This document shows, in pieces, positions 7,795 through 9,379 of a DNA stretch of 16,202 bases. Under the pieces are notes generated by a model. That model was given only the letters and a program-made list of their open reading frames with translations. It made no database searches and had not been told where the DNA came from. The number at the start of each line of letters is the position of its first letter. The stretch's first letter is position 1. The DNA is from a virus (Duplodnaviria; Heunggongvirae; Uroviricota; Caudoviricetes): IMG/VR virus record IMGVR_UViG_2718218360_000018. One strand, given 5' to 3'. The translations under genes were made by a program, and so were the position numbers.

Positions 7795-8064
7795 TTACTT
7801 CATCCCGCCAATATTTTCCCACGTCCCGTCAGCACGCAGGATTTGCAGCGGTCTTACCACACACTGTATCTGCTTTTTATCCGCATCCAGTATCACCACC
7901 TGCGTGATTACCCTGACCTGCTCCGGGATAATGCCATTCTCATCTGACTCCAGGATGTCTGCCGGCCCCAGTCGCAGTTGTACTGTAAGCGACTGCCCGT
8001 GTTCACAGTCATCATGCTTTCCGCAACCGCACAGACGCTGCATAATTTTTTTTAATATGTTCAT
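7795..8064 (-). CDS. Small protein paralogous to the C-terminal domain of the adjacent tail fibre protein
   Basis: 89 aa from ATG at 8062-8064 (AGGAG RBS at 8071-8075, start directly after the stf stop). LRLGPADILESDENGIIPE...LQILRADGTWENI aligns with the stf C-terminus [19 protein letters not shown]...[13 protein letters not shown]. The 133-aa ORF in the track is an upstream extension overlapping stf. Confidence 0.5.
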   Translation of the reverse strand: MNILKKIMQRLCGCGKHDDCEHGQSLTVQLRLGPADILESDENGIIPEQVRVITQVVILDADKKQIQCVVRPLQILRADGTWENIGGMK

Positions 8065-8065
8065 G

Positions 8066-9379
8066 TCATTCTCCTGTTCTGCCTGTATCACTGCCCACTT
8101 CATCCAGCCCCTTAACATCCTGCCACGGCCCGTCACCAAACCTGACCTGCAAATGCTGAAAAAAAACCTGAACCCGTGTGGCATCTTTGGGGGCAAGAAA
8201 GGTCAGTCCGGTGATGAGTGCGCCATCTGTATCCGGGAACCAGCCATTGCTGTTTGTCTCAATAATGTTTCCCGGCCCCAGACGAAAACGGATTTGTGTC
8301 TCCCCCGGGTCGCCCTTCGGTCCCTGAGGTCCGGTTGCCCCCACCGGGCCAGTCGCACCTGTTTCTCCTTTCGGTCCCTGTGGGCCTGCCGGGCCTGCCG
8401 CACCGGTATCTCCCTTTGGACCCTGTGGACCTGCATTTCCCGTCAGACCGGTCTCTCCCCGCTCTCCCCTGTCACCTTTCGGCCCCTGCGGGCCTGCCGG
8501 ACCAGCATCACCTGCCGGTCCCCGTTCGCCGGTTGCCCCGACAGGGCCGGTGTCACCGCGCTCTCCCTTATCACCCTTCGGCCCCTGAGGACCCGCGGGC
8601 CCCTGTTCCCCCTTTGGCCCGGGAGGTCCCACCACGGTGGGGATTCTGTTTACGGCTTCTTCCGCCGCTATCCTGCTTTGTTCCGCTGACTGTGCGCTTT
8701 CTGCTGACTCCCGGGCTTTTTCTGCTGCGGTCGTTGCATCCCTGGATGCATTACCGGCTGCACTTTCTGCCGTCTTTCTTGACAATTCAGCTTCTGCTGC
8801 ACTTTGTGATGACTCACTGGCTTTTTGAGCGGCCGCAGAGGCCGAGGACGAGGACGCCTCCTCTGACTGCTTTGCAGCGGCTGCACTTTCTGCCGCCTGC
8901 CGGGCTGACTCCGATGCATCCCCTGCTGAAGTGTCAGCATTTGCAGCGTTCTCTTCTGCCTGACTGGCTGATATGCCGGCATTCCTCGCGGACGTCTCCG
9001 CCTCTCCGGCATTCTTCTTCGCCTCCTCAGCGTGACGCGCCGCTTCTTCCACCATCAGTTCAAAACGACGCAGTGCCTCCGGCCGGACGTCATCCTCCGA
9101 CATGGCACCGAGAAAATCATTCAGCGTACCGGGTTGAGAATCTTCATACACGGTGATGGTCCCGGCATGTGACGGCGGGAATCCTTCCACCAACAGAATG
9201 ACGCTGTACTGACCGTACTCAACGTCCATGCTGTAACGACCGGCTTCATCCGGATTTTCAGAGGCCACCGTGTTCACCACCACCGTGCTGCTGGTCCGTC
9301 TGGCTTTCAGTTGAATGGTGCAGTTCTCTACCGGTTTTCCTGTGCCGTCTTTCAGTACACCTGAAATCTTTACTGCCAT
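8066..9379 (-). CDS. stf: Lambda Stf-like side tail fibre protein with collagen-like Gly-X-Y repeats
   Basis: N-terminus [25 protein letters not shown] matches my recollection of lambda Stf; Ala/Ser/Glu-rich central region; about 110 aa of GPxGPxG repeats; start at ATG 9377-9379 preceded by GGGGTG. Confidence 0.85.
8300..8629 (-). repeat. Collagen-like triple-helix (Gly-X-Y)n coding repeat within stf
   Basis: Protein residues 253-362 are uninterrupted G-x-y triplets ([19 protein letters not shown]...), reflected in periodic GC-rich DNA. Confidence 0.8.

Follow-up and report, generated by a model that had tools for sequence, protein, structure and literature searches.

A free-standing PfC paralog encoded directly downstream of a collagen-like tail fibre gene in an Escherichia coli O157:H7 prophage remnant

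Introduction

Why should a collagen-like tail fibre gene be followed immediately by a small gene encoding a second, diverged version of the fibre's own tip? The question is raised by a 16,202-nt stretch of caudoviral DNA (IMG/VR record IMGVR_UViG_2718218360_000018; hereafter, the window), which is a prophage remnant of Escherichia coli O157:H7 without tail genes. A 437-amino-acid (aa) fibre is encoded at positions 8066–9379 on the minus strand and an 89-aa open reading frame (ORF) follows at 7795–8064 on the same strand, exactly the boundaries given in a preliminary description of the window. That description considered the small ORF to be a spare or alternative distal module, a remnant of tip-swapping recombination or a chaperone-like partner. 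The neighbours of the pair in the remnant are three NleG effector genes and lom. Because the prophage has no tail genes left, the pair is probably idle in the window itself.

The gene pair is real, but it had been annotated and published before and, as the result of a genome scan, is no discovery. In a locus 100% identical to the window, PGAP annotates the fibre as WP_000268945.1 and the small ORF as WP_001023355.1. The fibre type is known as EPclA (ECs2717), which was shown experimentally to be a trimer with coiled-coil behaviour and to have PfC as its trimerization domain (Ghosh 2012, PLoS One 7:e37872). The downstream small ORF goes unmentioned in that work, and the Sp17-like remnant at dusA is missing from its Table 2. 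In phage Sp5, the PfC-only ORF68 was found to be non-essential, Sp5 without ORF68 being able to infect and lysogenize (Mondal 2016, Sci Rep 6:39036). What is new here is the selection acting on the small gene, its strict linkage to PfC-tipped fibres, a near-invariant junction and ribosome-binding site, peptides of the small protein in a published phi24B supplement and evidence against a role as a recombination cassette.

Results

The upstream gene encodes an EPclA-type fibre

The fibre gene starts with an ATG at 9379 (minus strand) and ends with TGA, and its domains were delimited from the ORF list, the translation, Pfam and PGAP. As had been proposed, the N-terminus is of the lambda Stf type. 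Residues 1–133 (8981–9379) match PF08400 (phage_tail_N) with an E value of 6.3e-69, corresponding to the tail-attachment domain PfN of EPclA, and the first 93 residues match a chain named 'Tail fiber protein' in PDB entries 9e7m/9mgh (E 2e-51). An Ala/Glu/Ser-rich stalk follows (residues 134–250; 8630–8980), which corresponds to the trimeric coiled coil termed 'PCoil' in EPclA (Ghosh 2012). A single collagen domain (PF01391; residues 251–361; 8297–8629) connects the stalk to the C-terminal domain. The run of Gly-X-Y triplets is indeed uninterrupted, but a regular-expression count gave 37 triplets rather than the approximately 36 first described. Residues 363–426 (8102–8293) form PfC, the trimerizing distal knob (Ghosh 2012), and match PF06820 (Phage_fiber_C) with an E value of 3.5e-35; no solved PfC structure was found in the PDB by sequence or profile searches. 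The last segment, 8066–8101, comprises the C-terminal tail and the TGA and houses the ribosome-binding site of the small ORF.

The same succession of domains in 437 aa, with PfN, coiled-coil stalk (116 aa), collagen (111 aa) and PfC, characterizes EPclA, which likewise lies in a lambdoid O157:H7 prophage and follows lom. There is no material difference between the two and the window's fibre is a member of the type. Since its length and domain layout agree with the EPclA entries in Table 2 of Ghosh 2012, it would be a dumbbell-shaped trimer whose stalk consists of coiled coil and collagen, as shown experimentally for ECs2717. The suggestion that the triplet repeats vary in length was borne out, with 27–37 triplets in EPclA-type fibres and, for fibres of the EPclB type, 9–31 in the middle segment across related loci. 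Such variation was tabulated earlier (Ghosh 2012). Within the window, the collagen-coding DNA displays 45-bp and 9-bp periodicities.

The small ORF encodes a second PfC

The 89-aa ORF (7795–8064, minus strand, ending in TAA) had been described as a diverged copy of the fibre's C-terminal domain, and pairwise comparison agreed. Residues 363–425 of the fibre and residues 28–88 of the small protein align by BLASTP with 32% identity (E 2e-10). Residues 28–89 of the small protein (7798–7983) cover positions 1–64 of the 64-position PF06820 profile (E 2.7e-34). As judged by sequence comparison, the paralogy is far beyond chance because this match scores 117.8 bits against a gathering cut-off of 25. 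PHROG 576 matches the protein over its full length (E 2.5e-59), while NCBIfam reported no family for it. The ORF is an orthologue of Sp5 ORF68 (which follows ECs1228) and of phi24B 'gp59': all are 89-aa, PfC-only and placed one base past the fibre stop. They differ in setting, as Sp5 ORF68 follows an EPclB lateral fibre and the window's ORF follows EPclA, the long-tail type, in a defective prophage.

PfC is not always a single terminal knob. In the 565-aa protein P0148, four tandem PfC-like repeats precede collagen, and the P0148 type shares the motif V-V-V-L-D-A-D ... L-x-V-R-x-A-D-G-x-W-x-x-I. The modules of P0148 are covalently linked in one chain, whereas the second PfC module of the window is a separate polypeptide with its own predicted N-terminal helix.

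The 27 N-terminal residues of the small protein (7984–8064) comprise this predicted short helix (residues 3–12), a CGCGKH motif and a variable linker. The helix appeared at low confidence in both AlphaFold2 (AF2) monomer models, which were built from alignments of 13 and 32 rows and, with a mean pLDDT of ~54, were too poor for fold searching. The Cys/His-rich segment CGCGKHDDCEH pointed out in the preliminary description is present, but its conservation is only partial. Residues C12, C14, K16 and H17 are kept across ~80 related loci, while position 20 is occupied by Cys or Arg and position 22 by His or Asn, and only L11, G13, C14 and K16 persist in the N-terminal segment of a 59%-identical homologue. 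Because of this partial conservation, a conserved four-ligand zinc site is unsupported, and a zinc-finger reading was rejected: two of the ligands vary and C14 alone is invariant out to 59% identity. A shared metal site on the axis of a small-protein trimer is possible. A lipoprotein (Llp/Cor-like) reading of LCGC was also rejected, as the MNILKKIMQR preceding the conserved LxGC has no hydrophobic core.

The two genes share a conserved coupling junction

The small ORF begins right after the fibre stop and has its own ribosome-binding site, as first described. Its ATG lies one base past the TGA of the fibre (TGA-C-ATG; junction sequence GGCAGAACAGGAGAATGACATGAAC) and an AGGAG Shine–Dalgarno sequence (8071–8075, minus strand) stands 6 nt upstream of the ATG, inside the last codons of the fibre. 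The TGA-C-ATG spacing is identical throughout the related loci examined. Nucleotide diversity falls to 0.00–0.02 at the fibre C-terminal tail and junction compared to 0.04–0.18 in the flanks, and third-position diversity in the tail is 0.022 versus 0.09.

Downstream of the small ORF, an intrinsic terminator (7749–7780, minus strand; hairpin AAAACCGGAG-UCCGG-CUCCGGUUUU plus a U tract; −21.2 kcal/mol, z −4.5) closes the unit, and about 73 nt 3' of the ORF are kept across PfC loci, with divergence beyond. A terminator scan located a second terminator between lom and the fibre start (9396–9417, minus strand). The fibre gene and the small ORF would thus constitute a late-transcribed bicistron framed by two terminators; by analogy with lambda biology, transcription of the pair would be antiterminated, because a terminator stands between lom and the fibre start. 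PGAP also places a 'tail assembly protein' pseudogene at 7716–7793, which was considered as an ancestral tfa. The only matches to its translation lay in the terminator region of Stx phages and of phage 434, which carries no annotation, and no DNA counterpart was present in 49 loci with Stf fibres of other C-termini. The pseudogene gives no evidence for an ancestral tfa.

The small gene is strictly linked to PfC-tipped fibres and is under selection

Of the 5426 complete E. coli genomes, 697 carry the small gene at ~11 copies each; complete genomes hold 6794 copies altogether, and the median per EHEC genome is 11. Searches of 1.84 billion representatives and two word-indexed searches confined the family to Escherichia and Citrobacter rodentium, and GTDB species representatives yielded only two matches. 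In loci sampled through the fibre, the small gene was directly downstream in 27 of 27 PfC-tipped fibres, while it was absent from all 49 sampled loci in which Stf-type fibres have other C-termini. It never occurred without a PfC-tipped fibre gene in the loci sampled. The linkage extends beyond EPclA: in IMG/VR loci, small ORFs 90–96% identical to that of the window also follow EPclB-type fibres of 616–682 aa, and the 59%-identical homologue follows a non-collagen fibre of 212 aa that ends in PfC, with start and stop codons overlapping.

Could the small gene nevertheless be a functionless decaying duplicate or a recombination scar? In the fibre-ascertained set, four of the 27 copies (~15%) are frameshifted or truncated, the C. 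rodentium copies are degraded and the gene is dispensable in Sp5. The remaining 23 copies of that set are intact, as are 77 of 80 in another set of related loci. Where loci had been selected for their similarity to the small ORF, dN/dS was 0.078 for its PfC and, for the ORF as a whole, 0.15, with pS at 0.13–0.15; across the two sets, dN/dS of 0.06–0.15 was reached at substantial synonymous divergence. In loci chosen by fibre similarity, dN/dS was 0.059 for the small PfC versus 0.236 for the fibre PfC. Over the two differently ascertained sets, the small PfC ranged from 0.06 to 0.08 at a pS of about 0.12 and the fibre PfC from 0.22 to 0.24, and the N-terminal segment of the small protein was more relaxed at 0.23–0.40. 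The codon substitution pattern indicates that the small gene is under selection and its PfC under very strong purifying selection. At such values of its PfC, the small gene is not a decaying copy. The start signals are also conserved, peptides of the product have been detected and the arrangement is retained in a lineage that is only 59% identical and has a different fibre body. Decay, the remnant reading of the preliminary description, is effectively refuted by the selection analysis.

The small ORF makes a poor recombination cassette

The small ORF could alternatively be kept as a silent or semi-silent reservoir of donor DNA for replacement of the fibre tip, generating receptor-binding variants, as was suggested for Sp5 ORF68 (Mondal 2016). 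With a median of 11 copies per EHEC genome, recombination partners would be plentiful, and public data yielded two natural chimeras, the only ones detected: P0117 joins the N-terminus of the small ORF to a C-terminus from the fibre PfC, and in P0065 the collagen runs straight into the small PfC. These chimeras number only one and four sequences versus thousands of normal copies, and both are out of register, skipping ~10 residues or the first strand. Efficient RecA-type exchange requires an exact match of roughly 20 or more nucleotides, but the two PfC coding segments are 54% identical at the nucleotide level and their longest exact match is 10 nt. Neither a dN/dS of 0.06 nor conservation of the start codon and ribosome-binding site would be seen in a silent copy, nor would its peptides turn up in a proteome. 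In addition, the small PfC has no diversity to donate because it is nearly invariant. The spare-module idea is thus improbable, whether the alternative tip were reached by recombination or through a slippery site, none of which is conserved.

Peptides of the small protein occur in a virion preparation

Two peptides unique to the small protein, ADGTWENIGGMK and VITQVVILDADKK, appear in the supplement of a proteome of sucrose-gradient-purified phi24B virions, in which the authors left the 'gp59' peptides undiscussed (Bubenchikov et al. 2026 bioRxiv). They are identical to residues 52–64 and 78–89 of the window's protein. Each was counted three times compared to 47 counts for the fibre's own C-terminal peptide, placing the small protein ~15-fold below the fibre in spectral counts. 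Because of this low level, and because the peptides went undiscussed, the small protein could be a contaminant of the preparation.

The same data bear on programmed frameshifting or transcriptional slippage, by which the small ORF in the +1 frame would supply an alternative C-terminus fused to the fibre. In 88 of 91 loci, the 46 codons preceding the ATG contain no stop in the +1 frame, the window has a run of eight T within the fibre PfC (8160–8167) and the search database of the phi24B authors included 'Fusion_6159_FS1/FS2', with a match labelled 'Spike or just gp59?'. Yet the phi24B data yielded no peptide spanning a fusion junction, while the normal fibre C-terminal peptide is abundant in them. 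The T run, which is 3 to 8 nt long depending on the locus, offers no conserved slippery site, a stop lies 13 codons upstream in three loci, and a fusion at the T run would remove the last strands of the fibre PfC. The small ORF moreover has its own conserved AGGAG and ATG, and a frameshift signal was likewise not found for Sp5 (Mondal 2016). We consider a programmed fusion very unlikely.

Discussion

The small gene occupies the slot that, in lambda-type stf loci, is taken by tfa. Like the genes for lambda Tfa and other tail fibre assembly proteins of the Caudo_TAP family, it stands immediately 3' of a side tail fibre gene and is tied to the type of fibre C-terminus. Unlike Tfa, the small protein is paralogous to the tip of the fibre, and neither infectivity nor fibre trimerization requires it (Ghosh 2012; Mondal 2016). 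No similarity to Tfa-type chaperones was detected, Pfam reporting only PF06820 at E values up to 1. The small protein cannot be an essential chaperone because recombinant EPclA trimerizes and refolds without it (Ghosh 2012) and Sp5 without ORF68 is infectious (Mondal 2016).

Of the roles first proposed, we favour a chaperone-like or accessory partner. Our tentative reading is that the 89-aa ORF is a translationally coupled late gene for a dedicated, non-essential fibre accessory that is probably trimeric. It would be the companion of PfC-tipped collagen-like fibres, of EPclA in long-tailed and of EPclB in short-tailed Stx/lambdoid phages. The protein would amount to a stalk-less copy of the distal knob, in which a short helix at the N-terminus and a linker containing Cys precede PfC. 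Since PfC trimerizes autonomously, the protein most likely assembles into a homotrimer. It may either associate with the distal knob of the fibre or assist fibre maturation, and may be carried into virions only at a low level. The two knobs are under different constraint: the fibre PfC varies recurrently at ~8 positions between loci, suggesting a host-facing surface, whereas the almost invariant free knob suggests a conserved partner.

The small protein might instead act away from the virion as a free soluble knob, released at lysis or made by the lysogen, that binds the same or another surface ligand and thereby blocks receptors, reduces loss of progeny on debris or exerts a moron-like effect on the host. 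The protein is sub-stoichiometric in virions and dispensable for infection, and its invariant domain suggests a conserved ligand. A moron-like action was considered given the adjacent NleG effectors and Lom: in the tail-less remnant, the small ORF has stayed intact beside the three NleG genes and lom. A conserved L-x-G-C is superficially lipobox-like, but no signal peptide is recognizable in the sequence, and because only about five non-hydrophobic residues (IMQR) separate Lys-Lys from LxGC, the protein is unlikely to be exported or lipidated. Late expression together with the fibre is indicated by the flanking terminators and the tight coupling of the two genes, and in the loci sampled the small gene is never apart from a PfC-tipped fibre gene. 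This role is unlikely.

A more speculative proposal, which we regard as doubtful but conceivable, is that the free PfC protein represents a new kind of tail fibre accessory, a tip paralog that took the place of Tfa. It would be an invariant trimeric mini-knob with Cys14 brought onto the three-fold axis by a short coiled-coil neck. Such a knob might dock on the variable knob of the collagen fibre and contribute a further specificity of binding, a conserved one, or might be set free in soluble form and modulate adsorption of the progeny.

Constraint is tighter on the free knob than on the knob of the fibre, which is a concrete reason not to dismiss the small gene as a remnant. PfC-tipped collagen-like fibres are carried by most Shiga-toxin phages and many effector-carrying EHEC prophages, so adsorption through these fibres bears on the spread of stx and effector genes. 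Recent work has argued that the receptor of the PfC knob is other than BamA. A conserved, co-translated free knob that is small and probably soluble offers a handle on this receptor question and could be used as a ligand probe.

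Fibre gene and its downstream paralog

The fibre gene (8066–9379, minus strand; 437 aa) encodes a phage_tail_N domain over residues 1–133 (Pfam, E = 6e-69), collagen repeats that were also matched by Pfam and a terminal Phage_fiber_C domain (PfC, PF06820; residues 363–426, E = 3.5e-35). Residues 1–93 are similar to the chain named 'Tail fiber protein' in PDB 9e7m/9mgh (E = 2e-51). The uninterrupted collagen repeat of the preliminary description was retained, with its "about 36" triplets corrected by a regular-expression count to 37 Gly-X-Y triplets at residues 251–361. The protein is the EPclA of Ghosh et al. 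(2012), sharing its 437-aa layout of lambda Stf-type N-terminal domain (PfN), 116-aa coiled coil, 111-aa collagen and PfC. EPclA was shown experimentally to be a trimeric dumbbell, of which the isolated PfC trimerises and nucleates refolding of the collagen helix (Ghosh et al. 2012). Repeat-number variation, earlier proposed as plausible, is real and already published, as the same study tabulates collagen lengths of 27 to 144 residues for EPclA- and EPclD-type fibres; the downstream small ORF is unmentioned there.

That small ORF (7795–8064, minus strand; 89 aa) begins one base past the fibre stop in the +1 frame, as the junction reads ...GGA GAA TGA C ATG AAC, with AGGAG 6 nt upstream of the ATG. 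BLASTP aligned fibre residues 363–425 with small-protein residues 28–88 at 32% identity (E = 2e-10), and the small protein spans the entire PF06820 profile (E = 2.7e-34), confirming the suspected paralogy with the fibre's C-terminal domain. PHROG 576 matches its full length. The Cys/His-rich segment noted near its N terminus is conserved in part: C12, C14, K16 and H17 are kept, whereas positions 20 and 22 vary (Cys or Arg and His or Asn, respectively). The pair as an object is already annotated and published: NCBI PGAP names the small gene 'phage tail fiber C-terminal domain-containing protein', and it was noted as ORF68 in the short-tailed Stx2 phage Sp5, where no frameshift signal was found, ORF68 was counted with the non-essential late genes and was put forward as a possible intragenomic reservoir of sequence for tail fibre variation (Mondal et al. 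2016).

Among 5426 complete E. coli genomes, 697 carry the 270-bp ORF; its copies number 6794, with a median of 11 per carrier genome. A 93%-identical copy on a 725-bp contig of 'Xanthomonas pisi' DSM 18956 (NZ_JPLE01000138.1) almost certainly reflects contamination of the assembly by E. coli DNA.

Prophage setting

Many E. coli O157:H7 chromosomes are 100% identical to window positions 7700–9450. The counterpart in strain EC4115 is a degraded lambdoid prophage adjoining dusA, in agreement with Pfam scans of the window ORFs, which gave the order dusA, IS66-family element plus integrase C-terminal fragment, dinI, three NleG genes, small ORF and fibre, lom and J fragment. The tail-tip protein J is reduced to its C-terminal 217 residues abutting early-region fragments (Ig_GpJ_C remnant next to an oppositely oriented DUF2303 fragment, 10111–11237). 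A large deletion took all other tail and head genes; lom, the fibre gene and the small ORF are still intact. With no other tail genes left, the window copy of the pair is probably idle, and its role is therefore to be read from intact relatives.

The IS66-family element (2476–4809, plus strand) encodes an HTH transposase, IS66 Orf2 and a 512-aa DDE transposase and is directly followed by a 109-aa integrase C-terminal fragment (4886–5215). Its insertion is strain-specific, as the EC4115 locus, identical elsewhere, has the 1098-bp integrase gene uninterrupted at this site. Right after the terminator of the fibre/small-ORF unit come three NleG-family genes in tandem (5686–7689, minus strand), encoding type III effectors of 213, 209 and 192 aa; EHEC lambdoid prophages usually carry cargo at this position.

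Transcription unit and junction

The small ORF is followed by a strong hairpin and U tract (−21.2 kcal/mol, z = −4.5), and lom is separated from the fibre start by a second terminator, so that fibre and small ORF form a bicistronic unit, presumably requiring antiterminated late transcription. Nucleotide diversity is 0.00–0.02 from 40 nt upstream to 5 nt downstream of the small-ORF ATG, compared to 0.04–0.18 in the flanks, and third-codon-position diversity is 0.022 in the last 11 fibre codons versus 0.09 elsewhere. Such conservation fits selection acting on both the ribosome-binding site and translational coupling.

A 'tail assembly protein' pseudogene called by PGAP at 7716–7793 (minus strand) in the identical EC4115 locus looks like an over-annotation, as its translation matches only an unannotated, terminator-containing stretch that Stx phages and phage 434 conserve 3′ of their fibre genes. 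At two related loci (L107/L108), the ~73-nt terminator segment trailing the small ORF is present twice (3990–4063 and 4865–5057), ~0.8 kb apart, which suggests insertion of cargo between duplicated segments.

Linkage and selection

Two IMG/VR sets were compared: 80 loci chosen by similarity to the small ORF, and 79 chosen by similarity to the fibre and hence not ascertained on the small ORF. In the former, the 89-aa ORF is intact in 77 of 80 loci and the TGA-C-ATG junction is present in every one. In the fibre-chosen set, all 27 PfC-ended fibres have the small gene directly downstream (23 intact, four frameshifted or truncated); the 49 Stf-type fibres with a different C terminus all lack it within 2.5 kb. 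The 616–682-aa EPclB-type fibres of short-tailed Stx phages are also trailed by the small ORF (90–96% identical). A 79-aa homologue (P0125, 59% identical) follows a 212-aa non-collagen fibre ending in PfC, the two genes overlapping by 14 nt. At one locus (L091), the fibre stop is changed from TGA to TGT (3651–3653), adding 17 residues that run across the small-ORF start; the small ORF there is also frameshifted, in a G run.

Nei–Gojobori dN/dS values on unique sequences (small-ORF-chosen and fibre-chosen sets, respectively) were 0.078 and 0.059 for the PfC part of the small protein, 0.23 and 0.40 for its N-terminal 27 codons and 0.22 and 0.236 for the fibre's own PfC, with similar synonymous divergence (0.11–0.21) in all three regions. 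Variation recurs at ~8 positions of the fibre knob; the free knob is almost invariant. Intactness and dN/dS together rule against the remnant, or decaying duplicate, considered previously, and a decaying scar is now a most improbable reading. That the small ORF is a functional gene is well supported and very probably correct.

Tip exchange, also raised in the preliminary description, fares poorly. A recombination cassette for the fibre tip is quite unlikely: in a codon alignment the two PfC segments are 54% identical at nucleotide level and match exactly over no more than 10 nt at a stretch, less than ordinary homologous recombination would need, and the two chimeric homologues found (P0117 and P0065) are rare and out of register, each lacking ~10 residues or the first strand.

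Detection in a virion proteome

The supplement of a 2026 preprint on the phi24B virion proteome lists two peptides unique to the small protein (gp59), ADGTWENIGGMK and VITQVVILDADKK, identical to residues 78–89 and 52–64 of the window's small protein. The protein is thus produced and, at low level, accompanies virions through purification, an apparent spectral-count column giving 3 for each peptide versus 47 for the fibre's C-terminal peptide. It is a candidate structural component. The rival reading of a free, soluble knob that works away from the virion seems unlikely. The hit is undiscussed in the main text of the preprint.

The preprint's authors had placed two hypothetical frameshift fusions in their search database and labelled the hit 'Spike or just gp59?'; neither a junction peptide nor an N-terminal peptide was found in the portion of the supplement covered. 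In 88 of 91 loci the +1 frame stays open for 46 codons upstream, which favors fusion of fibre to small ORF by frameshifting, but a stop lies 13 codons upstream in three, and the sole candidate slippery run, T8 inside the fibre PfC coding region (8160–8167, minus strand), ranges from 3 to 8 nt among loci and would, as a fusion site, destroy the fibre's own PfC. We consider fusion very improbable. The T run is a possible slippage hotspot at which the fibre could be broken, as it is in the split fibres of several loci. In vB_EcoS_phi330 (PV189401.1, 4071–5654), a long-tailed Stx phage that has been isolated and is infectious, the collagen fibre is annotated as two ORFs and is thus disrupted, with the small PfC ORF present, echoing the dispensable, frameshifted stf of laboratory lambda.

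Structure and proposed role

Two AlphaFold2 monomer models of the small protein, both of low confidence (pLDDT about 54), give an N-terminal helix (residues 3–12) followed by beta strands, a picture that fits the little helix reported for the PfC of EPclA (Ghosh et al. 2012). L4, I/L7, L11 and C14 form an a-d-a-d heptad pattern that recurs in the 59%-identical homologue (F4, I7, L11 and C14); judged from sequence, this N terminus may be a two-heptad trimeric neck replacing the collagen stalk. In a distant 565-aa metagenomic fibre-like protein (P0148), four tandem PfC-like modules of ~90 aa each precede a collagen segment, so PfC is not confined to a single terminal position.

Of the chaperone-like partner proposed earlier, the partner remains plausible. 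Two findings speak against a strict chaperone role: recombinant fibre self-assembles (Ghosh et al. 2012) and Sp5 lacking ORF68 is viable (Mondal et al. 2016). Tentatively, and at somewhat less than even odds, the small protein would serve PfC-tipped fibres as an accessory that is non-essential and probably trimeric; co-translated with the fibre from the genomic slot held by tfa in other Stf types, it may associate with the distal knob or aid its maturation.
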